A stretch of 64,000 nt of DNA from a bacterium (GCA_029990205.1 JAPEKQ010000002.1:32845-96844), one strand, 5' to 3'. Positions 21,611-58,829 are shown, counted from the stretch's first letter. Numbers and translations are program-made. Notes: generated by a model not told the origin, from the letters alone.

Positions 21611-21633
21611 GCGGACCGAGGCGTGGGCTGCTG

Positions 21634-22086: not shown

Positions 22087-22521
22087 CTAACCCTTGAGTT
22101 CGTATGTCTCCGGCTGCTGTGCCGTGTGCGGATGCTCCGGGCCCGCGTAGACGCGAAGCTTCTTGAGCATCTTCCTGCCGAGCTTGTTCTTCGGAAGCAT
22201 CCCGCGAACCGCACGGCGCACGACCTCGTCCGGACGCTCATCCATGAGCCGGCGCATCGTCTTGAACTTCGCGCCGCCCGGATGACCACTGTGCCGGAAG
22301 TACGTCTTCTGGTCGAGCTTGCTGCCTGTCACCTCGATCTTCGCGGCGTTGACCACGATGACGAAGTCGCCCGTATCGAGATGCGGCGAGTAGTTGACCT
22401 TCCCCTTGCCACGGAGAAGACCAGCAACCTCGGTCGAGAGTCTACCGAGGATCTTGCCCTCGGCATCCACGACGTAGTGCTTCCGCTCGATCTCAGAGGC
22501 CTTGGTGATGTGTGTAGACAT
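22087..22521 (-). CDS. rplM: 50S ribosomal protein L13
   Basis: MSTHITKASEIERKHYVVDAEGKILGRLSTEVA... Confidence 0.95.
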   Translation of the reverse strand: MSTHITKASEIERKHYVVDAEGKILGRLSTEVAGLLRGKGKVNYSPHLDTGDFVIVVNAAKIEVTGSKLDQKTYFRHSGHPGGAKFKTMRRLMDERPDEVVRRAVRGMLPKNKLGRKMLKKLRVYAGPEHPHTAQQPETYELKG

Positions 22522-22804
22522 CCAGTGTTCCTCCACAACCGGTGAGCCGACTTTCGCACCCACGTCCCCGGGCGCACCTCAGGTGCACACCGTTGCACGC
22601 GCCTGCGACATGCAGACACACCGCTCCGTCTGTCCGGCGGTCGTTTCGACCGGCGGAACGTGTGATCCGGCTCCCTCCGCGTTGTCGGGTGCACATCGGA
22701 AGCCTCAGAAGCCCCATCCCTCCGGCGATGTCGGATTCCGGAAACGGAAGGGACCTGTAGCACGAACCTGAAATACTAACAGCGAGAGCCCTGTCTGTCA
22801 AGGC

Positions 22805-28927: not shown

Positions 28928-29307
28928 GAGCTGCAGCAGACCGTAAGCCGAGTTCTGTCGGAAGGCGAACCTTCCGCGACGACCATTCATCTGGGACGCC
29001 GGTTACCCGACGCCTCAAGCGACCCACCCGGGAGTTCTAGCGAAGCGGGCAGCTTCTCCTCCCCTACTTGGTCTCGCTCCGGACGGGGTTTACCTAGCTG
29101 CCCCCGTCACCGGGGGCACTGGTGGGCTCTTACCCCACCTTTTCACCCTTGCCGGGGAACCGCAAGCGGCACCCTTAGGCGGTCTACCTTTCTGCGGCAC
29201 TTTCCTTAGGATCACTCCCACTGGGCGTTACCCAGCGTCCTGCCCTCTGGAGCTCGGACTTTCCTCGGACGGACACGTCCGTCCGCGGTCGCCTGGCCTA
29301 CTGCATT
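28928..29307 (-). ncRNA. rnpB: RNase P RNA, bacterial type A
   Basis: Minus strand reads ...CGAGGAAAGUCCGAGCUCCAGAGGGCAGG..GGGUAACGCCCAGUGGGAG...AGGAAAGUGCCGCAGAAA...GGUAAGAGCCCACCAGUGCCC...CAGAUGAAUGGUCGUCGC...ACAGAACUCGGCUUACGGUCUGCUGC. P1 helix GCAGUAGGCC/GGUCUGCUGC. Ends are approximate to within 5 nt. Confidence 0.92.
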
Positions 29308-29333: not shown

Positions 29334-29951
29334 CTATTCGATGCCCTGCTTCGCCCCACGCTTCGCGAGACGGTCGGCTTCCGCGTTCTGCTCGCGCGGC
29401 ACGTGGACGATCGAGATGTCCTCGAGACGCGCGATGAGCGCCGAGACCTGCAGGTACTTCTCCTGGAGCTTCGGGTCGCGGACCTTGTAGCGTCCCATCA
29501 ACTGCCGCGCCACGAGTTCGCTGTCGAGCCTCAGTTCGACCGTCTTCGCGCCATGCGCGAGCGCGGTCTCGATACCCATGCGGACGGCCTCGTACTCCGC
29601 GACGTTGTTGGTCGCGCGTCCCAGGTACTCCGAGACCGTGTCCACCTTCTCCCCATCGGGGGTCGTGATCACGGCGCCGGCTCCCGCGTTTCCCGGGTTG
29701 CCGAGTGATGCGCCGTCGGTCCAGATGATCAGTTTCGACGTCGGAGGCGTCCCGCTCGAGTCCGCGTCGTCGCCGTTCGGTGCGGTCACCGCGCCGAACT
29801 CGGAGACGGACCCAACCGTCGATGCAAAGCGCTGCACGCTCTCGAGAAACGACAGAGCGCGATCCTCGGAGAGCCCCACGCGCGCCGCGGCGTCCTTCCA
29901 GTGGAGCCCCTCGATGATCCCGCCAAGGAAATCGGCCTCGGGTCTACTCAT
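29334..29951 (-). CDS. rnhA: Ribonuclease HI family protein with an N-terminal extension
   Basis: ...IIWTDGASLGNPGNAGAGAVI...VAEYEAVRMGIETALAHGAKTVELRLDSELVARQL..., an RNase H type-1 fold. Overlaps the upstream gene by 8 nt. Confidence 0.8.
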   Translation of the reverse strand: MSRPEADFLGGIIEGLHWKDAAARVGLSEDRALSFLESVQRFASTVGSVSEFGAVTAPNGDDADSSGTPPTSKLIIWTDGASLGNPGNAGAGAVITTPDGEKVDTVSEYLGRATNNVAEYEAVRMGIETALAHGAKTVELRLDSELVARQLMGRYKVRDPKLQEKYLQVSALIARLEDISIVHVPREQNAEADRLAKRGAKQGIE

Positions 29952-30663
29952 CCTCGTCGCTTTCCTTCCGGTAGAGGATGCGCCCGCAGCTGTCGCACTC
30001 GGCGAGGCGGTTCCCGCGCTTCACCTCGATGGCGGCCTGCGGTGGAAGACGCTTGTAGCAGCCGGTGCAGACATCGTCCACGAGCGGGACGACCGCGCTG
30101 TCTCCCTTGCTCGAGAGGATGCGCTCGTAGCGGAGAAGCAGTTTGTCATCGAGATGCATCGCAACGCGCGTCCGCTCGTCGTTCCGGACCATGACGTACT
30201 CGCGCAGCTTCTCGAGTTCGCCCTTGAGCTCTGCGATCTGGTTCTCGACCTCTCCCCTCGCGCCGTCCGCCGCCTTCTTCCGCTCCTCGAGTTCCGCCGT
30301 CTTCACGTCGACGTCCTCGAGCATCTTGAGAACGACGTCCTCGGTCTCCGAGATCGTCTTCCGCATGAACTCGATCTCGTGCGTGAGCGCCGCATACTCC
30401 TCGTTCGTCTTGATGACGAGCTGCTTCGCTTTGAGGTCCTCGAGCTTCGCGCCCTGATCCCGCAGGTCTCCCTCGAGCCGCAGCCTGTCCTTCGTCGCCT
30501 GCTGCATCGATTCCTCGGCCTCCGTGACAAGCGCGTCGGCCGACGTCAGCTGTCCTTCGAGCTCCGCGATCCTGGGCGGCAGCGCCTCCGCCTCCCAAGT
30601 CGCCTCGGCCAGCGCAACGTCTATCTTCTGAAGCTCAAGAAGTCGCTCGAGATCCTCTCGCAC
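29944..30663 (-). CDS. Zinc-ribbon domain protein (COG1579/DUF164 family): coiled-coil plus C-terminal CxxC...CxxC
   Basis: ...LVDDVCTGCYKRLPPQAAIEVKRGNRLAECDSCGRILY. GTG start with GGGAGG RBS. Confidence 0.8.
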   Translation of the reverse strand: MREDLERLLELQKIDVALAEATWEAEALPPRIAELEGQLTSADALVTEAEESMQQATKDRLRLEGDLRDQGAKLEDLKAKQLVIKTNEEYAALTHEIEFMRKTISETEDVVLKMLEDVDVKTAELEERKKAADGARGEVENQIAELKGELEKLREYVMVRNDERTRVAMHLDDKLLLRYERILSSKGDSAVVPLVDDVCTGCYKRLPPQAAIEVKRGNRLAECDSCGRILYRKESDEDE

Positions 30664-30708
30664 CGGACGCCTCCCTACTCAATACTCATTCCCATGCACC
30701 GTCGCCAC

Positions 30709-30738
30709 CTAGATAAAGACGTACCCCGAGGGGTACGC
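30709..30738 (-). terminator. Intrinsic terminator candidate downstream of the tRNA pair
   Basis: On the minus strand CGUACCCC-UC-GGGGUACG is followed by UCUUUAUCU. Confidence 0.5.
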
Positions 30739-30882
30739 CTTGGAAGGATTCACGTGTCCACCGGCCGCCGCCCGAACCGGGTCGAGCGGCCTCGCAGCAT
30801 CCGTCTGCGGATTCAGGCTCCTGATGTAGACGTCATCTGTCAGGACAGCCCCCTCGGTGCTCGGCGTGCCGCGTCAGCGGTG

Positions 30883-30959
30883 TGGTGGGCGATACTGGAT
30901 TCGAACCAGTGACCTCCGGTATGTGAGACCGGCGCTCTAACCAACTGAGCTAATCGCCC
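30883..30959 (-). tRNA. tRNA-Val (anticodon CAC), CCA encoded
   Basis: Minus strand GGGCGATTAGCTCAGTTGGTTAGAGCGCCGGTCTCACATACCGGAGGTCACTGGTTCGAATCCAGTATCGCCCACCA. Cloverleaf is consistent. Anticodon loop CUCACAU. Confidence 0.9.
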
Positions 30960-30971
30960 ATGCTGTTCTCG

Positions 30972-31046
30972 TGGTGGGCCCACTCGGATTCGAACCAAGG
31001 ACCTACGGATTATGAGTCCGCTGCTCTACCGCTGAGCTATGGGCCC
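30972..31046 (-). tRNA. tRNA with CAU anticodon (tRNA-Met elongator, or tRNA-Ile2 read after lysidine modification), CCA encoded
   Basis: GGGCCCATAGCTCAGCGGTAGAGCAGCGGACTCATAATCCGTAGGTCCTTGGTTCGAATCCGAGTGGGCCCACCA. Anticodon loop CUCAUAA. C4:G69 and C5:G68 in the acceptor stem resemble tRNA-Ile2 determinants. It is not an initiator: no 3xGC anticodon stem and no 1:72 mismatch. Confidence 0.88.
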
Positions 31047-37860: not shown

Positions 37861-38823
37861 CTAGTGCCGGTAACGTCTGAAGCCGGAGCACTCGATGAGA
37901 TCGAACTTCCGTCTGGCGGCCTTCTCGACGCCGTCCAACAGAAGGTTCATCCCCAGCGTGTCGCTCGCTATGTGCCCGGCGATCACTACGTTGATGTGGT
38001 TCTTCTCGGCCTGTTCCCTGTTCTTCTCCGAGATGTGCATGCCCACGACCGTCCCGATGTCGGACGTGTTCGCGAGCTTCTCGAAGGCCTTGTGCGAACC
38101 ACCGGTCCCGCCCGTCATATCGACGAGGACCTTGCCGGTCCGCCGCTCCTCGCTGCCGACGAAGACCTTGAGTCCGGCGCCGAGCTTCTCGGCTTCGGCG
38201 TACTCGGGGATATCCCGGAGCACACCGAGCACGTCGCCGACGGTCTCGGCCTTCTTCGCGTCGAACAGCCTCTGAAGATACGTGGCCACACAGTTGTCGG
38301 CCGGTGTGTGGGTACAGATCATCGGGATGTCGAGAAGACGAGCCGCGTCGACGCCCCGCTGGTGGTTGATCGGCATGACGCCCCGCTCGACCTGCTTGAT
38401 GCGGGGACCCATGATGCCCTCGGCGACATTGATCGGGACGCCGTGAGCGTGGAGGATATCGGCCTGCATCGCCATGACACCGCTCAGGTTCGCCTGCGCC
38501 CCGCCCTCGGGATGGTGCGCCCAGATGAGATCGATCTTGCGACCCTTCTCGCGAAGCCGCTCGGTAAGGAGGACCTCGCCGATCTCCATGTCGATCCCCA
38601 TAATGACGCTCTTGACGTCGACGTCGTCGGCGCCGTGGAGGATGCGGGAATCGGAATACGGGCTGGTCAGACGCTCGGTGTCGAACACCTTCTTGTCGTT
38701 GCCCTTGAGACCGTCGTACTTCTTCTTCACGCGCTTGAGTTCCTTGCGAACAACCGCCTTGCCGCGCGGGTCGTACTCGATCCCGACCTTGACTGCCGCC
38801 TCGTAGAGCTTCCTGAGCTTCAT
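37861..38823 (-). CDS. Nif3-like dinuclear metal centre family protein (putative)
   Basis: ...IDLIWAHHPEG... and ...GHIASDTLGMNLLLDG... resemble the NIF3/YqfO metal-binding motifs. Assignment is by motif only. Confidence 0.55.
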   Translation of the reverse strand: MKLRKLYEAAVKVGIEYDPRGKAVVRKELKRVKKKYDGLKGNDKKVFDTERLTSPYSDSRILHGADDVDVKSVIMGIDMEIGEVLLTERLREKGRKIDLIWAHHPEGGAQANLSGVMAMQADILHAHGVPINVAEGIMGPRIKQVERGVMPINHQRGVDAARLLDIPMICTHTPADNCVATYLQRLFDAKKAETVGDVLGVLRDIPEYAEAEKLGAGLKVFVGSEERRTGKVLVDMTGGTGGSHKAFEKLANTSDIGTVVGMHISEKNREQAEKNHINVVIAGHIASDTLGMNLLLDGVEKAARRKFDLIECSGFRRYRH

Positions 38824-38864
38824 CGGTGCCTTTCCACACGGGAGCGCTTGACGCGCCCGTGACG

Positions 38865-39320
38865 CTAGCCCTCGCCTCCGGCGAGCTGCTGCTGGACCAC
38901 GGCCTTCACGACCTTTCCGTCCGCACGACCCTTCATCTTCGGCATGACGGCCTTCATGACGAGGCCCATTTCACGGACACTTGTTGCACCTGATTCCGCG
39001 ATGGCCTCTGCGACGAGCGAGGTGATCTCATCCTCGCTGAGCTGCTCGGGGAGGTACTGCGATACGACGGCTAGGCTGGCCTTCTCCTTGACGACGAGGT
39101 CGTCGCGGCCGGCCGGGCCAAACTGATCGATCGCCTCGCGGTGACGCTTCGCCACACGCGCGAGGACCTCGATCGCGTCCTCGTCCTTGAGGTCGCGACC
39201 GAGTTCGATCGCTCGATTCTTCATTTCGGAACGCACGAAGCGGATGACGCCCAGGCGCACGCCGTCGCGAGCCTTGGTCGCCTCGATCATGTCGTTCTTG
39301 AGTCGGTCCAGGATGCTCAT
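38865..39320 (-). CDS. GatB/YqeY domain-containing protein
   Basis: MSILDRLKNDMIEATKARDGVRLGVIRFVRSEMKN...EITSLVAEAIAESGATSVREMGLVMKAVM. GGGAGG RBS. Confidence 0.85.
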   Translation of the reverse strand: MSILDRLKNDMIEATKARDGVRLGVIRFVRSEMKNRAIELGRDLKDEDAIEVLARVAKRHREAIDQFGPAGRDDLVVKEKASLAVVSQYLPEQLSEDEITSLVAEAIAESGATSVREMGLVMKAVMPKMKGRADGKVVKAVVQQQLAGGEG

Positions 39321-39344
39321 GTCGCCTCCCGGAATCGATTCCGG

Positions 39345-39548
39345 TTACCTGGTCTTCGACTGCTTGATCTTGAGCTTGCGCAGCTTGCGCTTCGCAGCAC
39401 TGCGCTTGCGCTTCCTGCGCTCACTGGGCTTCTCGAAGTGAGAGTGCTTCCGGAGATCGGAGAGGATCCCGGCTTTCTCGCAGCGCTTCTTGAAACGGCG
39501 CAGTGCCCGCTCAAAGGACTCTCCGTCCTTGACTCGGACTCCTGGCAT
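39345..39548 (-). CDS. rpsU: 30S ribosomal protein S21
   Basis: [48 protein letters not shown]... Confidence 0.9.
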
Positions 39549-39619
39549 CTGGTGTTCACCCCCCTCCAAGGGTTGGCGACAACATCTGTCGGAGGGACAC
39601 GTATCCCCCCTGTGTGAGA

Positions 39620-39670
39620 CCGAAGCGTTGCTTCGACCGCACGACCTCTTTCAAGCGTACAAACGCTTGA
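39620..39670. promoter_or_regulatory. Two inverted repeats in the rpsU / CoA-transferase divergent intergenic region (candidate operator sites)
   Basis: CGAAGC-GTT-GCTTCG (39620-39634) and TCAAGCGT-ACAA-ACGCTTGA (39651-39670), seen directly. Confidence 0.3.
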
Positions 39671-39895
39671 GTATAGGGATTCATGAAGCAGGTGTCAACC
39701 CGTTTGTGTCGTTTTCCGGCCTGCTTCCGGAATCGCGTCCCCGAACTCCCGTCCAGAGGATCTGGTCGATCTCATACGCCCCACCGCCACCCGTTCCTTC
39801 CCCGTACACGCCCATTTCCGTTGACTTGGCGGCTCTTCTGCGAGACCATTCGTAGTGTTGCCTCAATTACTGAACGCTCATTCGGAGGGAGCACC

Positions 39896-41815
39896 ATGGA
39901 CCGCGACGCGGGCAAGAAGGCGCTCGAGCAGCTCCGCGAACGGTATCCGCAGAAGTTCGCCGTTCTCAAGACGGTCTTCGGGCACATACACCGCGGCCAG
40001 ACGATCTTCATCAGCACGGCGTGCGGCGAACCGAAGCATCTCGTCCACTCGATGATCGACTTCGTCGAGTCGGACCCCAAGGCGTTCAGTGACGCCGAGG
40101 TGCTCTCGGTCTGGACGCTCGGCGTCGCGCCGTATGCGGACCCCAAGTTCGAATACAACTTCCGGCACAACTCCTTCTTCGTGAGCGACAGCACGCGCAA
40201 CGCCGTGAACGAGGGAATGGCGGACTACACCCCTGTCTTCCTCTCGCAGGTTCCCGCCCTCTTCCGCAAGCGTCGCGTGCCGGTCGACATCGCGCTCATC
40301 CAGACGTCGCTACCCGACGAGCACGGGTTCATGAGTCTCGGCGTGTCGGTCGACATCACGAAGGCGGCCACCGAGATGGCGACGACCGTCATCGCGCAGA
40401 CGAACGCCTACATGCCCCGTGTCCACGGCGACGCGTTCGTGCACATCGACGACGTCGACTTCGTGGTCCCCTACGACGAACCGCTCCTGACATACGAAGC
40501 CTCTGTTCCTGGAGAGATCGCCGAACGCATCGGCAAGTACGTCTCGCGGATCGTCCAGAACGGTGACACCATCCAGGTCGGGTACGGCAGTCTCCCGGAC
40601 GCCATCCTCTCGAACCTCTTTGAGAAGAAGCACCTTGGTGTCCACACGGAGCTCATCAGCGACGGCATCGTCGCGCTGATGAAGGCCGGTGTCATCGACA
40701 ATACGCGCAAGACCATCGACAGAGGCAAGACGGTCGCCACATTCTGCATGGGCAAGCAGGAGACGTACGACTACCTCCACGACAACCCGGGCGTGGCGTT
40801 CCGCGAGATCGACTACACGAACAACCCGCTGACCATCGCGCAGATCCAGAACATGACGGCGATCAACTCGGCGCTTCAGATCGACCTGACCGGCCAGGCC
40901 ACGGCCGTCTCGCTTGGCCAGACGTTCTACAGCGGCATCGGCGGACAGGCCGACTTCATGCGTGGCGCGGTGCTCGCGCCAGGCGGTCGCACCATCCTCG
41001 CCCTCCCCTCCACGGCGAAGGACGATGAGATCTCGAGGATCGTCCCGGTGCTCGACGAGGCCGCCGGCGTCACGCTGATCCGCGGTGACATCCACTACGT
41101 CATCACCGAGTACGGCATCGCCTACCTGCACGGGAAGAACATCCGCGAACGCGCGATGGAGCTCTCGTCGATCGCGCATCCGAAGTTCCGCTCGTGGCTC
41201 ATCAGCGAGGCAAAGAAGCGGTCGATGGTCTACAAGGACCAGGCGTTCATCGCCGGCAAGAAGGGCGAGTATCCCGAGGAGCTCGAGGTCTATCGCACGA
41301 CGAAGTCGAACCTCGACATCCTCATCCGCCCCGTGAAGATCAGCGACGAACCGCGGCTCAAGGACTTCTTCTACTCGCTCTCCGACGAGAGCGTGCGACG
41401 CCGGTTCATGTCGAGCCGGACGGACATGCCGCACGAGCGGCTCCAGGACTTCGTGATCATCGACTTCACGAAGGAGATGGTCATGCTCGCGGTCAGGCAG
41501 ATCGAAGAGGGTGTCGAGGAGATCGTCGGCGTCGGGCAGTACGGTATCCACGAGCCGACCCATACGGCCGAGGTGGCGCTCGTCGTCCGCGACGACCACC
41601 AGGACCAGGGCGTCGGGACCGAGCTCCTCAAGTACCTCACGTCGCTCGCCCGCAGCCAGGGTCTGCTCGGATTCACGGCAGAAGTGCTCTACGAGAACGC
41701 GCCCATGCTTCACATGTTCTCACGCATGGGATACGATATCCACAGAACCGCAGAGGCAGGAGTGGTTGAACTCCGGATCGGATTCAGAGGACGAGATGAC
41801 GCACCAAGAACCTGA
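39896..41815 (+). CDS. Acetyl-CoA hydrolase/transferase family enzyme fused to a C-terminal Pat-type GNAT acetyltransferase domain
   Basis: MDRDAGKKALEQLRERYPQKFAVLKTVFGHIHRGQTIFISTACGEP... (4-hydroxybutyrate/acetyl-CoA transferase-like core, about 500 aa). C-terminus ...LDILIRPVKISDEPRLKDFFYSLSDESVRRRFMSS...QDQGVGTELLKYLTSLARSQGLLGFTAEVLYENAPMLHMFSRMGY (GNAT, resembling the acetyltransferase domain of protein acetyltransferase Pat). GGAGGGA RBS 5 nt upstream of ATG 39896. Confidence 0.85.
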   Translation: MDRDAGKKALEQLRERYPQKFAVLKTVFGHIHRGQTIFISTACGEPKHLVHSMIDFVESDPKAFSDAEVLSVWTLGVAPYADPKFEYNFRHNSFFVSDSTRNAVNEGMADYTPVFLSQVPALFRKRRVPVDIALIQTSLPDEHGFMSLGVSVDITKAATEMATTVIAQTNAYMPRVHGDAFVHIDDVDFVVPYDEPLLTYEASVPGEIAERIGKYVSRIVQNGDTIQVGYGSLPDAILSNLFEKKHLGVHTELISDGIVALMKAGVIDNTRKTIDRGKTVATFCMGKQETYDYLHDNPGVAFREIDYTNNPLTIAQIQNMTAINSALQIDLTGQATAVSLGQTFYSGIGGQADFMRGAVLAPGGRTILALPSTAKDDEISRIVPVLDEAAGVTLIRGDIHYVITEYGIAYLHGKNIRERAMELSSIAHPKFRSWLISEAKKRSMVYKDQAFIAGKKGEYPEELEVYRTTKSNLDILIRPVKISDEPRLKDFFYSLSDESVRRRFMSSRTDMPHERLQDFVIIDFTKEMVMLAVRQIEEGVEEIVGVGQYGIHEPTHTAEVALVVRDDHQDQGVGTELLKYLTSLARSQGLLGFTAEVLYENAPMLHMFSRMGYDIHRTAEAGVVELRIGFRGRDDAPRT

Positions 41816-43934
41816 TATCAGGCGCCTCTTCGAACCGCAGTCGGTAGCGGTCATCGGGGCGTCCCACAACGAGACCAAGATCGGCTCGAAGATCCTCGCG
41901 AACATCATCAACGGGGGATTTCCGGGCCGCATCTACCCGGTCAACCCGAAGGGCGGCGAAGTCCTCGGGCTCCCGGTCGCAAAGTCGATGGACGATGTCG
42001 AGATGGACGTCGACCTCATCGTGACCTGCGTCCCGGCGAAGTACACGCTCGACGCTGTGAAGGCGGCGGGCGCGCGGCGCGCCGCCTTCAACCTGGTGAT
42101 CACCTCCGGCTTCTCCGAGGTCGGTAACATCGATCTCGAACGCCAGGTGATGGACGTTGCGCGCGCCAGCAACATGCGGATCATCGGGCCGAACATCTTC
42201 GGGATGTACTCGGCCGCCGCCGACATCGACGCGACCTTCGGCCCGGGCGGCATCCGCAAGGGCGGGGTCGCCATCATCACGCAGAGCGGCGCGCTCGGAC
42301 TCGCCATGATCGGCAAGACGGGCGTCGAGAACGTCGGCATCTCCGCGATCGTCTCGGTCGGCAACAAGGCCGACATCGACGAGGCCGACCTGGTCTCCTA
42401 CCTGGTCGACGACGACATCACCGACGTCATCCTCATGTACATCGAGGGCGTGAAGAACGGCGACCGTCTGGTGGAGGTCCTCAAGACCGCCACGCGGAAG
42501 AAGCCGGTCGTCGTCATCAAGTCCGGCCGCTCGAAGCGCGGCGCTGTCGCGGCCGCGTCGCACACGGGCTCGCTGGCCGGCTCGGATGAGATCTTCGACG
42601 CGGTCATGCGCCAGTGCGGCGTTCTCCGCGCGGAGAGCATCAAGGAGGCCTTCAACCTCTGCAAGTTCCTCCCCGGCACCGGCATCCCGAAGGGCGACAA
42701 CACGGTTGTCATCACGAACGGCGGCGGTATCGGGGTGCTCGCGACCGACGCGTGCGAGAAGTACAACGTCAAGATGTACGACGACGTCACATCCCTGAAG
42801 GAGATCTTTGCGCCGGCCACGCCGGCGTTCGGGTCGACCAAGAACCCGATCGACATCACCGGTGGCGCGACCTCTGCGGACTACACGCTGGCGATGGACG
42901 CTGCACTCGCGAGCGATTCCATCGGTTCGGTCATCTCGCTCTACTGCGAGACGGCCGTGTTCGACGCCGACAACCTCGGCGACATGATCGCCAAGAACAC
43001 CAAGCGCTACCGCGCTGCCGGTAAGCCGATCGCGTTCTCGGTGTTCGGCGGCGAGGAGACCGAGCGCATCCAGAACGAGCTCTCGAAGGACGGCATGCCG
43101 GTCTTCGGGGACGTCTACGAGACCGTCTGCTGTCTCGGCGGCGTCTACCGCTACCGCCGATACCTCGAGCAGTGGACCGACGAGGTGCATGAGGAGAAGA
43201 TCGACTTCGACGCGATCGATCAGGTCGTCGCGGAAGCGAGGGCCGATCGCCGGAGCTTCCTGCTGGCCGACGAGGGCCGCAGGGTCATGGAGGCCGCAGG
43301 CATCCCGCTCCCGGCGACGAAGACCGCGAAGAGCATGGAGGAAGCTGTCAAGCTCGCCGACGAGATCGGCTACCCGGTCGTGATGAAGGTCGTTTCGCGG
43401 GACATCCTCCACAAGAGCGACTCCGGCGGCGTCGCGCTCGACCTCGAGAACACCGAGGAGGTCATCGACGCGTACGAGGCCATCATGCGGAACTGCCGCA
43501 CCAACGTCCCCGGCGCCCGCATCCAGGGCATCCAGGTCATGGAGATGGCGCCTCCGGGCGTCGAGCTCATCGTCGGCGCGAGACGCGACGCGGGGTTCGG
43601 CCCGATCATCATGTTCGGAATGGGCGGTATCTACGTGGAGGTCCTCAAGGACATCTCGTTCCGCGCCGTCCCACTCAACCGCGCCGAGGCGCTCGAGATG
43701 ATGAAGGAGATCAGAGCCTTCCCGCTCCTGCTTGGAGTCCGGGGCGAGGAGCGCAAGGATATCGAGAGCGTGCTGGACGCGGTCATCCGGATCGGGACCG
43801 TCATCCGGCACGTGGAAGACATATCGGACATCGAGGTCAACCCGCTCGTGGCGTACGAACAGGGCCGCGGGGCGAAGGCCGTCGACGTGAGAATACTCCT
43901 TACGGATATCGCTGGAGGTGACACCAATGCGTAG
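41796..43934 (+). CDS. Acetate--CoA ligase (ADP-forming), fused alpha/beta subunits (CoA-binding, SCS-alpha-like and ATP-grasp domains)
   Basis: MTHQEPDIRRLFEPQSVAVIGASHNETKIGSKILANI... (CoA-binding). ...AAASHTGSLAGSDEIF... (phosphohistidine loop). C-terminal ATP-grasp ...GYPVVMKVVSRDILHKSDSGGVALDL... Start overlaps the upstream gene by 20 nt. Confidence 0.85.
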   Translation: MTHQEPDIRRLFEPQSVAVIGASHNETKIGSKILANIINGGFPGRIYPVNPKGGEVLGLPVAKSMDDVEMDVDLIVTCVPAKYTLDAVKAAGARRAAFNLVITSGFSEVGNIDLERQVMDVARASNMRIIGPNIFGMYSAAADIDATFGPGGIRKGGVAIITQSGALGLAMIGKTGVENVGISAIVSVGNKADIDEADLVSYLVDDDITDVILMYIEGVKNGDRLVEVLKTATRKKPVVVIKSGRSKRGAVAAASHTGSLAGSDEIFDAVMRQCGVLRAESIKEAFNLCKFLPGTGIPKGDNTVVITNGGGIGVLATDACEKYNVKMYDDVTSLKEIFAPATPAFGSTKNPIDITGGATSADYTLAMDAALASDSIGSVISLYCETAVFDADNLGDMIAKNTKRYRAAGKPIAFSVFGGEETERIQNELSKDGMPVFGDVYETVCCLGGVYRYRRYLEQWTDEVHEEKIDFDAIDQVVAEARADRRSFLLADEGRRVMEAAGIPLPATKTAKSMEEAVKLADEIGYPVVMKVVSRDILHKSDSGGVALDLENTEEVIDAYEAIMRNCRTNVPGARIQGIQVMEMAPPGVELIVGARRDAGFGPIIMFGMGGIYVEVLKDISFRAVPLNRAEALEMMKEIRAFPLLLGVRGEERKDIESVLDAVIRIGTVIRHVEDISDIEVNPLVAYEQGRGAKAVDVRILLTDIAGGDTNA

Positions 43935-44964
43935 GCTGGTCATTGCATCGACCCGCGAGAACGCGGGAAAGACGAGCCTCATCGTAGGCCTGGGCAGGGC
44001 GTCGGGGAAGCCGTTCGGTTACCTCAAGCCGTTCGGCGACCGTCTTCTCTACCGGAAGAAGCGCCTCTGGGACTACGACTCCGCGCTCGTCGGTCAGATC
44101 TTCGAACTGGCCATGGACCCGAGAGAGATGAGCATCGGCTTCGACCACTCGAAGCTTCGGTTCATGTACGACGAGGAGACCACGAACAAGAAGCTCACCG
44201 AACTCGTCACGAACGCCGAGTCCGGCAAGGAAGCCGTGCTCATCGAGAGCGGCGGAGACCTCACGCACGGCGTCGCGGTCAACCTCGACGCAGTCTCGCT
44301 GGCGCGTGCGATGGACGCCTCGCTCCTCGTGATGATGTCCGGCGCTGACCAGACGGTGCTCGACGACATCGCGTTCGTCCAGCGCCACGTCAACCTCGAG
44401 GGAATCGACTTCGCGGGCATCGTCGTCAACAAGCTCCACGACACAGAGGACTTCCGCAACACCTACGAGGCAGAGCTGGCCGCGCAGGGCGTCAACATCC
44501 TCGGTCTCGTTCCGAACGACCCCGAGCTCAACTACCCGTCGGTCGGCTTCCTCGCCGAGTCGCTCTTCGCTAAGATCATCACGGGAGCGGACGCGCTGGG
44601 AGGCGTGGTCGAGAACGTATTCGTCGGCGCGATGTCGGCCGACGCGGCCAGGCGCCAGCCGATGTTCAAGAAGGGACGCCGGCTGGTCATCACCAGCGGC
44701 GACCGCGATGACATGATCCTGCTCGCGCTCGAGGGCGACACGGTCGGCCTCGTGCTCACCAACGGGATCGCGCCGCACTCGAGCATCATCTCGAAGGCGA
44801 CTGAGCGCGGCGTGCCGATGCTCCTGACCGCGGACGATACCTTCAAGGTCGCCAAGGCCGTCGATGACGCCAGCTACCTGCTCCGCCACGACGAGACGGA
44901 CAAGGTCGACCGGCTGACGGAGCTCATCCGGGAGAACGTCGACGTCGCGGCGATCATGGGGTAG
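43927..44964 (+). CDS. Standalone phosphotransacetylase N-terminal-like protein (CobQ/MinD-like AAA domain plus DRTGG domain) lacking the PTA catalytic domain
   Basis: MRRLVIASTRENAGKTSLIVGL... (P-loop-like). ...LVITSGDRDDMILLALEG...LVLTNGIAPHSSIISKATERGVPMLLTADDTFKVA (DRTGG-like). GGAGG RBS. Overlaps the upstream stop by 8 nt. Confidence 0.8.
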   Translation: MRRLVIASTRENAGKTSLIVGLGRASGKPFGYLKPFGDRLLYRKKRLWDYDSALVGQIFELAMDPREMSIGFDHSKLRFMYDEETTNKKLTELVTNAESGKEAVLIESGGDLTHGVAVNLDAVSLARAMDASLLVMMSGADQTVLDDIAFVQRHVNLEGIDFAGIVVNKLHDTEDFRNTYEAELAAQGVNILGLVPNDPELNYPSVGFLAESLFAKIITGADALGGVVENVFVGAMSADAARRQPMFKKGRRLVITSGDRDDMILLALEGDTVGLVLTNGIAPHSSIISKATERGVPMLLTADDTFKVAKAVDDASYLLRHDETDKVDRLTELIRENVDVAAIMG

Positions 44965-44994: not shown

Positions 44995-45040
44995 CAAACG
45001 AAAGCGGCCGGTTCTTCACAGAGCCGGCCGCTTCTTCATG
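44995..45040. terminator. Bidirectional intrinsic terminator between the convergent DRTGG gene and rsmE
   Basis: AAGCGGCCGG-(12 nt loop)-CCGGCCGCTT, a 10-bp perfect stem, flanked by an A-rich run upstream and CTTCATGTCTTC downstream. Confidence 0.6.
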
Positions 45041-45899: not shown

Positions 45900-46274
45900 C
45901 TAGCAGCCGCAGCCCTGTCCGTGGTGCCCGCACGACGTCTGCGGTGTGAGTTCGACGAGAGAGCCGTCCTTCGCCGCCGCGGCGTTGTCCGCAACGGTAC
46001 CCTCGAGCGCGCGGTACACGCGGATGCCCGCACCGTTGAGTCCCATCAGCGCCCGTGCCCCGATCCCGCCGACGACGATCGCGTCGACCGTCTCGCCCGA
46101 GAGCGATGCGAGCGGGTTGCAGGCCCCGTGCTCGTGGTCCTTGCCTGAGTTGTCGAGGGACCTCGTCTCGCCAGTCTCCGTGTCGTGCACGACGAAGCAC
46201 GGCGCCGAGCCGAAGTGTCCGAACACCTTCGCGTCCAGCCCGGTCCCGCCATCTGTCGGAATGCAGAGCCGCAT
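45900..46274 (-). CDS. NifX/NifB-like dinitrogenase FeMo-cofactor-biosynthesis-domain protein (PF02579 family)
   Basis: MRLCIPTDGGTGLDAKVFGHFGSAPCFVVHDTETGETRSLDNSG...VDAIVVGGIGARALMGLNGAGIRVY... Cys/His-rich C-terminus ...SCGHHGQGCGC. Confidence 0.75.
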   Translation of the reverse strand: MRLCIPTDGGTGLDAKVFGHFGSAPCFVVHDTETGETRSLDNSGKDHEHGACNPLASLSGETVDAIVVGGIGARALMGLNGAGIRVYRALEGTVADNAAAAKDGSLVELTPQTSCGHHGQGCGC

Positions 46275-47629: not shown

Positions 47630-48070
47630 CTAGCTCCGCTGCCTCCATCCGCCAACCGCGAACCAGCGCACGGCGTGGTAGGCCGGGACTCGCCGCCAGG
47701 CCGCGACACCCTCCTCCTTCATGACCTCGCGGAAGAGGAGGTCCGCTTCCTTGCGAGTGTACTCCCTCGGCGGCGTGATGACACCCTTCGGTGGCTTCCC
47801 GCCATACCGATAGAGGTAATCGTGAAGAAGGGGGGCCGCGATCGACAGCTCGAACGGCGCGGCGAGCCACCAGATCGCGCGCGGGATCGACGCCAGATCG
47901 AACTCGAACCCCGCCGGGATGCTGATCAGATTCTCCCCGTGCTGGTAGCTGTACGGCTCCTCGAGTCTCCAGGTCTGCCTGTCGACGATGTACGTCACGA
48001 CCGGGCTCTTGAGATGAGACGCCGCAATCTTGATCAGTTCGTTGATGAGCTGTCGGGTGAAGGCCTTCAT
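47630..48070 (-). CDS. DUF1353-like domain protein (hypothetical) inserted between dnaK and dnaJ
   Basis: MKAFTRQLINELIKIAASHLKSPVVTYIVDRQTWRLEEPYSYQHGENLISIPAGFEFDLASIPR... The ATG at 48070 overlaps the stop of the upstream small ORF (ATGA). Confidence 0.65.
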   Translation of the reverse strand: MKAFTRQLINELIKIAASHLKSPVVTYIVDRQTWRLEEPYSYQHGENLISIPAGFEFDLASIPRAIWWLAAPFELSIAAPLLHDYLYRYGGKPPKGVITPPREYTRKEADLLFREVMKEEGVAAWRRVPAYHAVRWFAVGGWRQRS

Positions 48071-54349: not shown

Positions 54350-54448
54350 TGGCGGGAATGTGTGGGAATCGAACCCACCCCGGACGGGATTAACCGCCCA
54401 GCATAAGGGTTTGAAGCCCTCGGGGCCCACCAGGACCCATCCATCCCC
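54350..54448 (-). tRNA. selC: tRNA-Sec (selenocysteine tRNA, anticodon UCA), 99 nt with CCA encoded
   Basis: Minus strand GGGGATGG-AT-GGGTCC-TGGT-GGGCCC-C-GAGGG-CTTCAAA-CCCTT-(long variable arm ATGCTGGGCGGTTAATCCCGTCCGG)-GGTGGG-TTCGATT-CCCAC-ACATTCCC-G-CCA. 8-bp acceptor stem with one terminal mismatch, 6-bp D-stem with 4-nt loop, UCA anticodon. Located 135 nt downstream of the Sec-containing selD. Confidence 0.75.
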
Positions 54449-54582: not shown

Positions 54583-55626
54583 CTAGCGCAGGGAGATGGG
54601 GTGCGGTCCCTGGGGTCTGACGCGGCCGATACGCCACCAGCCGGCCTCGTCCACGGCCATCTCCCGCTCGAAGACCGGGAGCGCGTCCTCGGGAAGCGCC
54701 ACCAGGAGTCCGCCAGAGGTCTGCGGATCGAATGTCAGTTCGGTGACCACGGTGTCCGCTGTCTCGATCGAGACGCGAGGCGAGTAGAAGTGCCGGTTGG
54801 TGCCCAGACCGCCCGGGGCGATCCCGTCAGCACAGAGCTCGCGTGCCCCATCCATCAACGGGAGTTCGGCGGCGTCGATCTCGATGGTCACGCCGCTCCC
54901 CTCGGCCATCTCGAGCGCGTGTCCTATCAGACCGAAACCCGTGACGTCGGTCGCCGCATGCGCGCCGGCGGCGATCATCGCGCGCGAAGCCGACCGGTTG
55001 AGCGTCGCCATCTGCTCGGTGAGCGCGCCCACCGTCTCCGCCGGCACCCGCTCGAACTTGATGCCGGTCGCGATCACGCCCGTCCCGAGCGGCTTCGTGA
55101 GGACCATCACATCACCCGGCGTCGCGCCCACGTTCGACACGATGCGATCCGGGTGGATGGTTCCGACGACGGCCATCCCGAACTTGAGTTCCTGATCGCT
55201 CACCGAGTGCCCGCCGATCGTCAGGACCCCGGCCTCGAGCGCCTTCTTCTGTGCGCCGGCGAGAATGTCACCGAGCACGGCGTTGGGAAGATCGCCGTCC
55301 GGGAAGCAGACGATGTTGAGCCCGATGAGCGGCGTGCCGCCCATCGCGTAGACATCGGAGATGGAGTTGGCCGCGGCCACGCGGCCGAAGTCGAACGGAT
55401 CGTCGACAACGGGCGTGAAGAAGTCGAGCGTGAACACCAGCGCGGTGTCGTCGTTAAGACGATACACCCCGGCGTCGTCCGCCGTGCTCGTCGAGACGAG
55501 GACGCGCGGATCCACGATCGGCGCAAGGCCCTTGAGCGCTTCGGCGAGGTCCTCCGGACCCAGCTTGGATGCTCAACCAGAGCAGCGGACCTTCTGGGTC
55601 AGCTTGTAGATCTCTTCACGAGACAC
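54583..55626 (-). CDS. selD: Selenide, water dikinase (selenophosphate synthetase) with an in-frame UGA selenocysteine codon at 55573-55575
   Basis: GTG start at 55626 (AGGAGA RBS overlapping the glmS stop). It reads VSREEIYKLTQKVRCSG-U(TGA)-ASKLGPEDLAEALKGLAPIVDPRVLVSTSTADDAGVYRLNDDTALVFTLDFFTPVVDDPFDFGRVAAANSISDVYAMGG... This aligns with E. coli SelD ...SHGAGCGCKISPKVLETIL...DDAAVY...[30 protein letters not shown]. The ORF track shows only the part downstream of the UGA (54583..55515). Confidence 0.85.
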
Positions 55627-55634
55627 GCTGTCTC

Positions 55635-57464
55635 CTATTCAACCGTCACGCTCTTGGCGAGATTGCGCGGCTGATCGACATCGCACCCTCGCAGCACGGC
55701 GATGTAGTACGCCAGCAGCTGGAGCGGCACGACCGCGAGCAGCGGCATGAGATGGGGCAGGGTATCGGGAACCTCCAACACGTCGTCGGCGATCCTGGCG
55801 ACCTCGGTGTCGCCCTCGGTCGCGATGGCGAGCACCCGCCCGCCGCGCGACTTCACCTCCTCCATGTTCGAGAGGATCTTCTCGTAGAACGGGTCCTGCG
55901 TCGCGATGAACACGACCGGCATCTTCTCGTCGATGAGCGCGATCGGACCGTGCTTCATCTCGGCGGCCGGGTAGCCCTCGGCGTGGATGTAACTGATCTC
56001 CTTGAGCTTCAGAGCGCCCTCGAGCGCGACCGGGAAGTTGTAGCCGCGGCCGAGGTACAGGAAGTTCTGGTGGCCCGCGTACTTCTCGGCGATCTTCTCG
56101 ACCTTGCCGCTCTGCCCCAGGATATCCCCGATCTGACTCGGAATGTCGAGCATGGCGCGGACGATCCGGCGACCGTCGATGACGGAGATGCTGTGCGCGC
56201 GGCCGACCGAGAGCGCGATCGCGGCCAGAACCATGACCTGCGATGTGAAGGCCTTGGTCGAAGCCACCCCGATCTCGGGGCCGGCGTGCGTGTAGACTCC
56301 GCCGTCGCTCTGACGAGCGATCGACGAGCCGACGACGTTGACGATGCCGAGCGTGGTGCCGCCGCGCCGCTGGACCTCCCCCATCGCCGCGAGCGTGTCG
56401 CGCGTCTCACCGGACTGACTGATGACGATGGCGAGGTCGCCCGGGTTGATGACAGGGTTGCGGTAGCGGAACTCGGAGGCGTACTCGACCTCGACCGAGA
56501 CCCTGGCGAGATCCTCGAGCATGTACTCGCCGATGAGTCCCGAGTGCCAGGAGGTCCCGCACGCGAGGATGAGGATCCTCTCGGCCTTCTTGAGCGCATC
56601 GCGATGCTCCCGGAGCCCTCCGAGAAACGCGTCGCCCGACGCCTCGATGAGCCGGCCGCGTACGGCGTCCATGACCGTCCGCTCCTGCTCATTGATCTCC
56701 TTGAGCATGTAATGCGGGTAGCCGTTCTTCTGCATCTGATCGACGTCCCACGTGATCCGCTCGACGTCCTTGGTGATAGAGACGTTCTGGAGCGTCGTGG
56801 TGGAGAATCCGTCCGGCGTCGCCACGACCATCTCGCGGTCGTCGAGGTAGACGACGTCCTTCGTGTGACGGACGAGCGCGGCGACGTCGGAGGCGACGAA
56901 GTAGCCCTCGCGCCCGATGCCGACGATGAGCGGGCTGCCGTTCCTCGCGGCGACGAGCATCTCCGGCTCGTCGGCGTGGATGGCCGCGATGCCGTACGCG
57001 CCGTGAACCCCCGCGAGCGCTGCGCGAACCGCCGCGGCAAGGTCGCCCGTGTAGTACTTCTCGATGAGGTGCGCGAGGACCTCGGTATCGGTCTCCGTCT
57101 GGAACGAGTGTCCCTCGGTCTCGAGCTGCCGCCTCAGAGGACGGTAGTTCTCGACGATGCCGTTGTGGACGACCGCGATCTTGCCGGTGCTGTCCGAGTG
57201 AGGATGGGCGTTCATCGCCGACGGCTCCCCGTGGGTCGCCCACCGCGTGTGCGCGATGCCGGTGCCGCCGATGACCGGGTCGCCGGACAGCACGCCCGCG
57301 AGCGCCTCGATCTTGCCGACCGTCTTCCGGACGTCAACGCGACCGTCATGCAGAACGGCGACACCCGCGCTGTCGTAGCCGCGGTACTCCATCCGGCGCA
57401 GACCCTCAACGAGAGTCGGCACCATGTCGTCCTTCCTCGTCACGCATCCGATGATCCCGCACAT
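55635..57464 (-). CDS. glmS: Glutamine--fructose-6-phosphate aminotransferase (isomerising)
   Basis: MCGIIGCVTRKDDMVPTLVEGLRRMEYRGYDSAGVAVL... (Ntn Cys2) and two SIS domains. Confidence 0.95.
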   Translation of the reverse strand: MCGIIGCVTRKDDMVPTLVEGLRRMEYRGYDSAGVAVLHDGRVDVRKTVGKIEALAGVLSGDPVIGGTGIAHTRWATHGEPSAMNAHPHSDSTGKIAVVHNGIVENYRPLRRQLETEGHSFQTETDTEVLAHLIEKYYTGDLAAAVRAALAGVHGAYGIAAIHADEPEMLVAARNGSPLIVGIGREGYFVASDVAALVRHTKDVVYLDDREMVVATPDGFSTTTLQNVSITKDVERITWDVDQMQKNGYPHYMLKEINEQERTVMDAVRGRLIEASGDAFLGGLREHRDALKKAERILILACGTSWHSGLIGEYMLEDLARVSVEVEYASEFRYRNPVINPGDLAIVISQSGETRDTLAAMGEVQRRGGTTLGIVNVVGSSIARQSDGGVYTHAGPEIGVASTKAFTSQVMVLAAIALSVGRAHSISVIDGRRIVRAMLDIPSQIGDILGQSGKVEKIAEKYAGHQNFLYLGRGYNFPVALEGALKLKEISYIHAEGYPAAEMKHGPIALIDEKMPVVFIATQDPFYEKILSNMEEVKSRGGRVLAIATEGDTEVARIADDVLEVPDTLPHLMPLLAVVPLQLLAYYIAVLRGCDVDQPRNLAKSVTVE

Positions 57465-58829
57465 CTATGCTCTTCCTTCCCCGGAGCCTCCGAGAGCCTT
57501 CTCGGCTCTCGTCGCGAGCGCGTCCGCGCCATCGGCATCCGGCGCTTCGGCGATAACACGTACGATCGGCTCCGTGTTCGAAGGGCGTACGTGGACCCAT
57601 CTGTCGGCCCACGAGATCTTGACTCCATCGGTCCGGTCGATCTCTCCACCGGTCAGTACGGCGACCAGCGCACTCTCCAGCTCGGCGGTCGACCGGGTCG
57701 CCGCCGGGAGCTTCCTTTTCACGATCGCATAGGGCGTGAGCTCGCGCACGAGCTCTCCGACGGTCGCCACGCCTCTGCGGGCCATGTGCGACACGATGAG
57801 CGCCACCGCCGTCGCCGCGTCGCGGCCGGGCTGCACGTCCGGCAGCACGACCCCACCGTTCCCCTCACCTCCCACGACGGCTGAGACCTCGAACATCTTC
57901 TCCACAACGTTCGCTTCGCCCACCGCCGTGCGATGAACGTTCACCCCGTACGAGGCTGCGACGTCGTCCATCATCCGACTCGTCGAGACATTGGTCACCA
58001 CGGGGCCCGGCGTGGTCGCAAGCACCGCACCGGTCGCGAGCGCCAGCGTGAACTCTTCACCGACGGCCAGACCGGTCTCGTCGACGATGGCGAGACGGTC
58101 CGCGTCCGGATCACACGCAAAGCCTGCCGCCGCACCGGTCTCACGGACGCGATCCCCGAGCGCCGTGAGGCTCTCGGGGACAGGCTCCGCCACACGCGGG
58201 AACCCTGTGCCGACCTCGGTGAACACCTCGACGACCTCGCACCCGAGCCTCCGCAGAAGCTGCGGGAGGATCACCGAACCCGCCGCGTTGCAGCAGTCGA
58301 CGACGATTCGAGGAGCCGCGTCGGCCACGGCGGCGCGGTCCACGTGCTGTGTGTCCAGAACCAGCTCGATGTGTGTCCTGATCGCGTCGGCGGTCTCCGG
58401 CGCAACCTCCGGGTCCGGGCACGGCGCCGCGGCTCTTCCCGCGAGCGCGTCGGCGGCGTCGAAGATCCGTTCGCCTTCCTCGCGCGTCACGAACACGCCG
58501 GAGCCCGAGAAGAACTTCAGGCCGTTGTACTCCCCCGGATTGTGACTCGCGGTGATGCAGATGCCGCCCGCGCATCCCCGGGTGCGGACGGCCACACCGA
58601 CGGTCGGGGTCGGCACGATACCGAGCTGGACCGGCGTCACACCGGCGATGAGAAGTCCCTGGACGACGGCCGCCTCGAGCGCGTCTCCGCCCGGGCGGGA
58701 GTCCCACCCGACCGCGACGCGGCCACCGGCGAGCTCTCCGAATGCGCGCGCGTGCCGTCGCGCGATGTTCTCATCGAGGTCACGCGGCACGATCCCGCGC
58801 ACACCCGCAACACTCCTGATAAGCGTCAA
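57465..58829 (-). CDS. glmM: Phosphoglucosamine mutase / alpha-D-phosphohexomutase family (glmM-like)
   Basis: ...SVAGVRGIV... Active-site ...ICITASHNPGEYNGLKFF... TTG start with GGGAGG RBS. Lies directly upstream of glmS on the same strand. Confidence 0.85.
   Translation of the reverse strand: MTLIRSVAGVRGIVPRDLDENIARRHARAFGELAGGRVAVGWDSRPGGDALEAAVVQGLLIAGVTPVQLGIVPTPTVGVAVRTRGCAGGICITASHNPGEYNGLKFFSGSGVFVTREEGERIFDAADALAGRAAAPCPDPEVAPETADAIRTHIELVLDTQHVDRAAVADAAPRIVVDCCNAAGSVILPQLLRRLGCEVVEVFTEVGTGFPRVAEPVPESLTALGDRVRETGAAAGFACDPDADRLAIVDETGLAVGEEFTLALATGAVLATTPGPVVTNVSTSRMMDDVAASYGVNVHRTAVGEANVVEKMFEVSAVVGGEGNGGVVLPDVQPGRDAATAVALIVSHMARRGVATVGELVRELTPYAIVKRKLPAATRSTAELESALVAVLTGGEIDRTDGVKISWADRWVHVRPSNTEPIVRVIAEAPDADGADALATRAEKALGGSGEGRA

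Follow-up and report, generated by a model that had tools for sequence, protein, structure and literature searches.

A widely conserved operon encoding a CoA-transferase/GNAT fusion, a predicted ADP-forming acyl-CoA synthetase and a free-standing Pta-N-like protein

Control of the AMP-forming acetyl-coenzyme A (acetyl-CoA) synthetase Acs by Pat-type acetylation is textbook metabolic regulation by bacterial lysine acetylation. To our knowledge, the sensor in all Pat-type enzymes studied is either a dead synthetase-like domain or a small ligand-binding domain. A 64,000-nucleotide (nt) stretch of bacterial DNA (GCA_029990205.1, JAPEKQ010000002.1:32845-96844; "the window" below means this whole stretch) presents something else: a Pat-type GNAT is joined to an apparently live CoA-transferase, and the gene for this fusion is the first of three reading frames on the plus strand (39896-44964). 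Do the three genes belong together, and what could they do?

Gene 1 (39896-41815) encodes the CoA-transferase/Pat-type GNAT fusion, a protein of 639 amino acids (aa), as judged by Pfam, NCBIfam and an independent gene call. Gene 2 (41796-43934) overlaps it by 20 nt and encodes a predicted ADP-forming acyl-CoA synthetase of 712 aa with fused alpha and beta parts. Gene 3 (43927-44964) overlaps gene 2 by 8 nt and encodes a free-standing protein of 345 aa similar to the N-terminal half of phosphotransacetylase (Pta). A preliminary description of the window had proposed this make-up from the DNA alone. Pfam and NCBIfam searches of all three proteins agree with it, and the coordinates and overlaps match independent gene calls on another assembly, GCA_029990285.1, where a 128.7-kb contig encodes an identical protein; the calls there give these three genes, again overlapping by 20 and 8 nt.

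Gene order across bacteria and archaea

The preliminary description had called the fusion no textbook enzyme; it is not rare, however. A word-indexed search returned at least 8000 relatives of gene 1; each of the best 120 is fused in the same way and at least 68% identical. Annotation pipelines already label it: PGAP names the fusion, and source names include "acyl-CoA hydrolase/GNAT superfamily N-acetyltransferase" and [quoted passage not shown] A scan with one genome per species found the fusion at no fewer than 589 places, among the most conserved and widespread of its kind. The 80 closest of these loci, 65-93% identical, come from more than 20 named groups, including archaea. The closest named relatives of the gene 1 protein belong to Candidatus Eisenbacteria. 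Bacterial carriers among the 80 are Eisenbacteria, Bipolaricaulota, Planctomycetota, Spirochaetota/Leptospiraceae, Syntrophaceae and other Thermodesulfobacteriota, Nitrospirota, Actinomycetota, Dehalococcoidia, Gemmatimonadota, Thermotogae, WOR-3, Zixiibacteriota, Aerophobetes, Neomarinimicrobiota, and the cultured cyanobacteria Microseira wollei and Lyngbya sp.; the archaeal ones are Theionarchaea, Thermoplasmata, Iainarchaeum, and Woesearchaeota. Asgard archaea also encode the fusion.

We used these 80 loci to examine gene order. Four of them end directly after gene 1, leaving 76 informative loci. A gene 2 orthologue (52-97% identical) lies immediately 3′ of gene 1 in 47 of the 76, and a gene 3 orthologue is present in every gene 1-gene 2 locus long enough to show it (37/37). 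Genes 1 and 2 typically overlap slightly (median gap −4 nt), and genes 2 and 3 nearly abut (median +3.5 nt); therefore, translational coupling is the rule. The same three genes were recovered when we started from two relatives of gene 3 (48 and 53% identical), one of them from Anaerolineae. Among the neighbors in the sampled loci we found no fourth conserved gene, and the flanks vary between lineages. These results confirm that the three genes are a widely conserved operon, a co-conserved unit of the kind that the preliminary description had suggested looking for in other genomes.

The 29 loci without a downstream gene 2 offer a second context. Their commonest neighbor, found within about 8 kb in 13 of the 29, is AMP-forming Acs (ACAS_N, AMP-binding, AMP-binding_C). 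Several such loci have the order acs-satP-fusion on one strand, and in two Asgard loci the fusion is convergent with Acs. An acetate channel of the GPR1/FUN34/YaaH (SatP) family occurs in four to six loci, aldehyde:ferredoxin oxidoreductase in six, and a PAS histidine kinase in five to seven. Eleven of the 15 proteins of the Acs-like cluster end in PKTRSGKIMRRILRKIA, the PX4GK site acetylated by Pat enzymes (PKTRSGK). Fusion identity is 69% between the two contexts and 70-71% within them; since these values match, the fusions of both contexts make up one orthologous family. The fusion is almost always encoded beside an acetate-activating enzyme, either ADP-forming or AMP-forming. This bears on the earlier claim that the operon couples acetate/acyl-CoA interconversion to lysine acetylation: in its favor, an Acs with a PX4GK site often stands near the fusion where the ADP-forming synthetase is absent, while the identity of the acetylated protein is something we infer.

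Some of the Acs contexts contain further genes. In Microseira wollei NIES-4236 (L020, 5781-13046), a 915-aa synthetase-GNAT fusion with both catalytic histidines retained (SHTGSLAG, HKTD) immediately precedes the CoA-transferase/GNAT fusion, which Acs follows directly, all on one strand, so that two different GNAT fusions and their likely target stand in one row. In the Promethearchaeota loci L085 and L086, several glutaredoxin-like genes, a ferredoxin-thioredoxin-reductase-like gene, and adenine glycosylase flank the fusion, in addition to the convergent Acs.

Active sites of the three proteins

The CoA-transferase domain of gene 1 (residues 8-445; 39917-41230, plus strand) is of the 4-hydroxybutyrate-CoA-transferase type by its solved relatives and motifs. 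Pfam recognizes AcetylCoA_hydro (PF02550) at residues 8-195 (E 4e-46, 157.9 bits versus a cut-off of 24) and AcetylCoA_hyd_C (PF13336) at residues 286-439 (E 2e-60, 203.5 bits versus 23.7), and the domain aligns end to end with solved 4-hydroxybutyrate-type CoA-transferases, best with 9vag (E 1e-114). We aligned 77 orthologues from many phyla. Glu252 of the HTE motif (codon 40649-40651), the catalytic nucleophile in this enzyme family, aligns with the HTE Glu of 9vag, 3eh7, and 2oas and is kept in all 77. The segment S346-G-I-G-G-Q351 is kept in 75 to 77 of them, and about 30% of gene 1 positions are at least 97% conserved. In place of the mobile G(V/I)G of ordinary transferases, all 77 have G229-Y230-G231. 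By sequence, the N-terminal part of gene 1 bears all the hallmarks of a working class I CoA-transferase.

The closest solved relative of this domain also has a link to acetylation. The Gly211-Ile212-Gly213 loop and Lys5/Lys6 of 9vag fit the numbering of Thermus thermophilus TtCoAT (TT_C1083), which is acetylated by the GNAT TT_C1711 and has an accessory NAD+-sensing protein (bioRxiv 10.1101/2025.10.31.685773). Like the transferase of gene 1, TtCoAT is functionally linked to a GNAT and to an accessory protein without catalytic activity whose gene is adjacent. The Thermus transferase, however, is not fused to its GNAT, and its accessory protein is a catalytically dead alanine dehydrogenase rather than a Pta-N-like one.

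The linker and GNAT domain of gene 1 span residues 456-631 (41261-41788, plus strand), with Acetyltransf_1 recognized by Pfam at residues 521-613 (E 7e-12). The best solved relatives are an 886-aa "protein acetyltransferase," 9it0 (residues 709-885), and the GNAT of S. lividans PatA, 4nxy; this part also aligns with M. tuberculosis Pat (4ava) and matches the NCBIfam mycobacterial Pat. Similarity to 9it0 begins before the GNAT core, at a pre-GNAT "YPxxLE" segment. The residue Glu559 (codon 41570-41572) falls opposite Glu809 in 9it0 and Glu235 in 4ava; 75 of the 77 orthologues keep it, and the other two have Asp. The corresponding mycobacterial Glu has been named the likely catalytic base (PMC8556138). 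In the acetyl-CoA-binding motif A, Q569-D-Q-G-V-G574 (Q-x-x-G572-x-G574), both glycines are kept in 74 to 75 of the 77. The alignments with 9it0, 4nxy, and 4ava, which include the linker, Glu559, and motif A, bear out the original assignment of this GNAT to the Pat type, and the C-terminal part of gene 1 shows all the sequence hallmarks of an active Pat-type lysine acetyltransferase.

How close is the fusion to Pat itself? With Pat/PatZ (YfiQ), the type I enzyme of Salmonella and E. coli, gene 1 has in common the GNAT subtype, the pre-GNAT linker, the aligned Glu, and motif A. In both, a large CoA-thioester-binding domain lies N-terminal to the GNAT, and both have a genetic link to acetate activation. 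The N-terminal domain of Pat/PatZ, however, is synthetase-like and lacks the catalytic histidine, whereas that of gene 1 is a class I CoA-transferase with an intact active site; the synthetase fold is here a separate, apparently active enzyme in the next gene. Five types of bacterial lysine acetyltransferase have been defined: types I and II have a dead synthetase-like domain, type III has a cAMP-, amino-acid- or NADP-binding domain, type IV is a GNAT alone, and type V is a tandem GNAT (PMC8556138). A CoA-transferase partner is not among them. By its predicted working the fusion resembles Pat, but by the N-terminal domain that defines type I (PMC8556138) it falls outside types I and II.

An AlphaFold2 model of the fusion, a check proposed in the preliminary description, was made and then set aside: with a predicted local distance difference test (pLDDT) score of 69.9, a predicted template modeling (pTM) score of 0.61, and the linker and parts of both domains below 50 pLDDT, it is too uncertain for domain packing.

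Divergent relatives are informative about the transferase domain. A search with the linker and GNAT region against 1.84 billion cluster representatives gave 11,032 matches at E ≤1e-3, 42 of them at ≤1e-30, and we aligned 29 representatives of 585-967 aa found among the best 150. Ten representatives were scanned with Pfam: five proved to be full-length fusions, four were shorter fragments, and one was a short protein with a GNAT only, so that each of the nine longer ones is a CoA-transferase/GNAT protein. About 10 of the 29 clusters have another residue (I, V, Q, D, S, C) in place of the catalytic Glu or have lost the GxGG, while the GNAT Glu and motif A stay. Since the catalytic site is lost and the GNAT motifs persist, the transferase domain can serve the GNAT without catalysis. 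Presumably it does so by binding acyl-CoA, with or without turnover. Judging from these alignments, the architecture is old and diversified, and the transferase domain appears to have repeatedly turned non-catalytic, following the same path as the synthetase-like domain of Pat. In the window's own family the domain looks fully competent. Sister families with a decayed transferase site are a natural series for the change from an enzyme into a sensor domain. Two of the longest relatives (P0304 and P0326, 960-967 aa) add a Cys-rich, iron-sulfur-like N-terminal region of about 340 aa (CxxCxxCxxxCP-like) to a transferase domain that has neither the catalytic Glu nor GxGG and to an intact GNAT; they may be redox-sensing acetyltransferases.

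Gene 2 contains CoA_binding_2 (PF13380), Succ_CoA_lig (PF13607), Ligase_CoA_2 (PF19045), and ATP-grasp_5 (PF13549), with E values down to 2e-75, the full set of a nucleoside diphosphate (NDP)-forming acyl-CoA synthetase in alpha-beta order. Its alignment with 8wzu covers the whole protein (E 2e-145); ACD1 alpha (4xyl) follows at E 9e-103, and the Pat 9it0 reaches just E 7e-75, which puts gene 2 much nearer to working ADP-forming ligases than to the Pat domain. His256 in SHTGSLAGS (codon 42561-42563) aligns with the phosphohistidine loop of solved ADP-forming ligases and is kept in 44 of 44 orthologues; in the beta part, His539 in LHKSD (43410-43412) aligns with the solved enzymes and is kept in 43 of 44. 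All subdomains and both catalytic histidines are therefore in place and conserved, and the synthetase deserves its first label of apparently catalytically intact: by sequence, it bears all the hallmarks of a working ADP-forming acetyl(acyl)-CoA synthetase (acetyl-CoA + ADP + Pi <-> acetate + ATP + CoA). In Pat, by contrast, the synthetase-like domain is inactive because the catalytic histidine is missing (PMC8556138).

Gene 3 carries AAA_26 (residues 2-204, E 1.5e-15) and DRTGG (residues 209-313, E 8e-22). The PTA_PTB catalytic domain is absent from it by Pfam, the protein ends at residue 345, and it covers only positions 3-367 of 708 in the NCBIfam Pta model PRK05632; it is a stand-alone Pta regulatory module without the catalytic domain, just as first described. 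An AlphaFold2 model (47 sequences; pLDDT 89.9, pTM 0.83) has an N-terminal, BioD-like P-loop domain resembling dethiobiotin synthetases as well as the N-domain of E. coli Pta in its crystal structure, 7t85. Its C-terminal domain matches the DRTGG protein AF1212 of Archaeoglobus fulgidus (2ioj; root mean square deviation 1.6 Å, 33% identity), and AF_1212 is also the only PDB sequence match of gene 3. The locus-tag neighbor of AF_1212, AF_1211, is one of the two characterized ADP-forming enzymes of A. fulgidus. It is listed as an acetate-CoA ligase of that organism (PMC8359953). Across 42 orthologues, the P-loop A13-G-K15-T16 of gene 3 is kept in 39 to 42 and T256-x-G-D-R-x-D262 in 40 to 42. In this model, gene 3 folds like the N-terminal regulatory half of long phosphotransacetylases, and its P-loop is intact.

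In long Pta, this N-terminal module reportedly mediates allosteric control and oligomerization, according to the work of Campos-Bermudez. Vita et al. (PMC4481167), with reference to Campos-Bermudez 2010, describe the module as one that only class II Pta has. In Desulfovibrio, DVU3031 lies beside pta-ackA (PMC4481167) and is required for growth on L-lactate (PMC10102598). The class II Pta N-terminal half, DVU3031, and AF_1212 share with gene 3 the two-domain fold and a neighborhood that takes acetyl-CoA to acetate and ATP (PMC4481167). In contrast to class II Pta, gene 3 lacks PTA_PTB; it is partnered with an ADP-forming synthetase, not with Pta/AckA, and its P-loop lysine is conserved.

Four spirochete loci have gene 3 in two tandem copies, 46-52% identical to the one in the window and preceded by a gap of about 200 nt (L034, 11585-13999; L045, 12233-14622; L048, 12178-14414; L049, 4749-7137). 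The duplication hints that the protein works as an oligomer or hetero-oligomer.

A possible acetate branch point and its alternatives

With moderate confidence, we propose that the three genes make up a translationally coupled operon at the acetate/acetyl-CoA branch point, with a built-in Pat-like acetyltransferase and a Pta-N-like regulator. The transferase would pass CoA between acetate and another short-chain acid. The synthetase would then convert acetyl-CoA into acetate and ATP; the pair would recover ATP from acyl-CoA or, in reverse, activate acids. The GNAT would acetylate the active-site lysine of AMP-forming Acs, encoded elsewhere in the genome or, in other lineages, adjoining the fusion. 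This acetylation would prevent a futile cycle in which AMP-forming acetate activation runs against ADP-forming acetate production. The transferase domain would tie the GNAT to the acyl-CoA pool, as the dead synthetase-like domain does in Pat, and the GNAT would sense that pool through its own site as well. The GNAT may have further targets in the enzymes of the operon itself, just as TtCoAT is a target of the separate GNAT TT_C1711 in Thermus (bioRxiv 10.1101/2025.10.31.685773). As for gene 3, it may bind nucleotide and serve the synthetase in trans, as a separate subunit that regulates or scaffolds it, the way the module works in cis in long Pta. We assign this role by association, because gene 3 co-occurs with gene 2 in 37 of 37 loci, a divergent synthetase and Pta-N pair exists at locus L044, AF_1211 neighbors AF_1212, and DVU3031 lies beside pta-ackA.

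The operon resembles the Pta-AckA or the transferase-synthetase route but is built from other parts. The cycle of acetate:succinate CoA-transferase and succinyl-CoA synthetase (PMC12817287) has the same logic, a CoA-transferase paired with an NDP-forming synthetase for ATP. It differs in enzyme families and substrates and has no acetyltransferase or Pta-N module, and the pairing in our operon is suggested by gene order only. A second parallel is acsA/acuABC of Bacillus subtilis, where the gene of an acetate-activating enzyme adjoins those of its GNAT and of a nucleotide-sensing adaptor (PMC8556138, PMC13039410). There, however, the GNAT is of the AcuA subtype, the adaptor AcuB has CBS domains instead of the BioD-like and DRTGG domains, the operon includes a deacetylase, and there is no CoA-transferase.

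Several points weigh against our proposal. The biochemistry of all three proteins, that is, the target of the GNAT, the transferase as an enzyme or a sensor, and the role of gene 3, is read from sequence. No Acs, Pta, AckA, or deacetylase was found among the checked genes of the window, so that any target in the source organism is a predicted one. We know of no case in which an ADP-forming synthetase is acetylated. The Lys5 that is acetylated in TtCoAT is not conserved, with Glu or Asp in most gene 1 orthologues; only the neighboring Lys20 is invariant, and a basic residue at that position is also seen in an unfused transferase. The invariant Tyr230 in the loop could signal a changed or restricted transferase reaction. 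The gene-order counts come from the closest 80 of at least 589 loci only. Finally, the stand-alone AAA+DRTGG proteins are orphans as to function (PMC10102598).

There is another possibility, which we find doubtful: the CoA-transferase domain could be mainly an acyl-CoA sensor that switches the GNAT and carries little flux, so that the operon would be a synthetase with its regulator rather than a two-enzyme cycle. The large domain of type I and II enzymes is catalytically dead and senses acetyl-CoA (PMC8556138), about 10 of the 29 divergent clusters have lost the catalytic Glu or GxGG and kept the GNAT motifs, and the G(V/I)G loop has been altered to an invariant GYG. However, Glu252 and SGIGGQ are invariant, and the conservation of about 30% of positions at 97% or more in 77 sequences is unexpected for a pure binding domain.

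Given the names of the best relatives, the module could also serve 4-hydroxybutyrate instead of acetate, combining a 4-hydroxybutyrate CoA-transferase with an ADP-forming 4-hydroxybutyrate-CoA ligase. This label is on 9vag, 3eh7, and 3gk7 for gene 1 and on 8wzu and NF045493 for gene 2. We regard this as very unlikely. Scores are far below the equivalog cut-offs: 270 versus 674.8 for the best NCBIfam CoA-transferase model of gene 1, and 580.7 versus 1300 for the 4-hydroxybutyrate ligase model NF045493, the best of the gene 2 models, all of which fall below their cut-offs. Moreover, the Thermus enzyme so named takes many short-chain acids (bioRxiv 10.1101/2025.10.31.685773), the alternative partner of the fusion is a canonical Acs with an acetate channel, and no 4-hydroxybutyrate dehydrogenase or dehydratase recurs near the sampled loci.

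GNATs are versatile, and the one in gene 1 weakly resembles phosphinothricin and streptothricin acetyltransferases (E 1e-3 to 1e-6). It might therefore acetylate a small molecule such as an amino acid, an antibiotic, or a polyamine, or merely consume acetyl-CoA, and have no protein target. We give this idea very little credence: Pat-type protein acetyltransferases match better by at least 10 orders of magnitude, with similarity that reaches into the pre-GNAT linker, and the fusion is repeatedly found near an Acs with a Pat site. That three unrelated genes came to lie by chance between housekeeping operons has practically no probability left, for although the operon does sit between housekeeping genes unrelated to it (rpsU, yqeY, and mutS2 to the left; rsmE, dnaJ, and dnaK to the right), order and coupling hold in 37 of 37 complete loci with overlapping or near-abutting frames and flanks that differ by lineage, and these synteny counts refute it.

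Returning to the acetate branch-point operon, what would it add? The sequence family is widespread and labelled by annotation pipelines, and the operon as a system is, as far as we could find, undescribed. Full-text searches of open-access papers and preprints found no experimental account of the CoA-transferase/GNAT fusion or of the operon, though one in a subscription journal is possible, and no paper on the family that links DRTGG with ADP-forming synthetases. If the proposed functions are true, acetylation control of the acetate node would reach a large part of uncultured anaerobic life, the ADP-forming synthetase would gain its first dedicated regulators, and the orphan stand-alone Pta-N (AAA+DRTGG) proteins would get a testable role. 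One can go further, tentatively, to an extended picture that we think unlikely in full. The CoA-transferase/GNAT fusion would be a sixth class of lysine acetyltransferase, which together with the synthetase and gene 3 would form a physical "acetate switch" complex in many anaerobes, bacterial as well as archaeal, with Asgard archaea among them. The covalent CoA chemistry of the transferase would gate acetylation, gene 3 would set the direction of the synthetase by adenylate charge, and the order GNAT-then-synthetase would represent the unfused, ancestor-like state of Pat.

Surroundings of the operon

A ribosome-binding site, GGAGGG (39884-39889, plus strand), can be read 6 nt 5′ of the ATG of gene 1. 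A consensus scan of the plus strand for a sigma-70-like promoter found none in the 347-nt gap between the divergent rpsU and gene 1, and an Rfam scan found no RNA element in or beside the operon. The left flank, on the minus strand, consists of rpsU, yqeY, a 320-aa gene, mutS2, dnaG, and rpoD. On the right, also on the minus strand, lie rsmE, a small Nitro_FeMo-Co protein, dnaJ, dnaK, grpE, and hrcA.

The preliminary description had placed a strong bidirectional terminator at the end of the operon. A hairpin that is a candidate for this role on both strands (45002-45033) lies between the stop of gene 3 (44964) and that of the convergent rsmE (45081). It has a G+C-rich stem of 14 bp and a 4-nt loop, and the 89-nt region around it folds at −39.9 kcal/mol (z = −3.1 versus shuffles). 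Against the word strong, its tails are weakly U-rich on both strands (CUUCAU, and UCGUUUG on the opposite strand), and a consensus terminator scan did not call it. A bidirectional terminator of non-canonical form is thus plausible.

Some features of the flanks are unusual. The 320-aa gene between mutS2 and yqeY (37861-38823, minus strand) has no Pfam match, neither by our scan nor among precomputed calls, and is present in all four operon-bearing contigs. The small Nitro_FeMo-Co (NifB/NifX-like) protein is encoded between rsmE and dnaJ (45900-46274, minus strand). A DUF1353 protein and a 55-aa gene lie between dnaJ and dnaK (about 47630-48070, minus strand), an unusual break in the hrcA-grpE-dnaK-dnaJ cluster. 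The G+C content is 0.62 at 38001-42000, which covers the rpsU/yqeY region and gene 1, versus about 0.66-0.67 elsewhere; the dip fits, without proving it, acquisition by horizontal transfer of a gene whose archaeal counterparts are about 70% identical.

Farther away in the window, long open reading frames without a Pfam match (20587-22545, 29578-30912, and 55569-57884, all on the plus strand) may be spurious shadows of opposite-strand genes in G+C-rich DNA. The minus strand encodes a bacterial class A RNase P RNA (28929-29304, 296 bits) and two adjacent tRNA genes (30886-31046). It also carries a selenocysteine tRNA gene at 54354-54448 (Rfam tRNA-Sec, 70 bits versus a gathering score of 47), and because of this gene the source organism probably makes selenoproteins.

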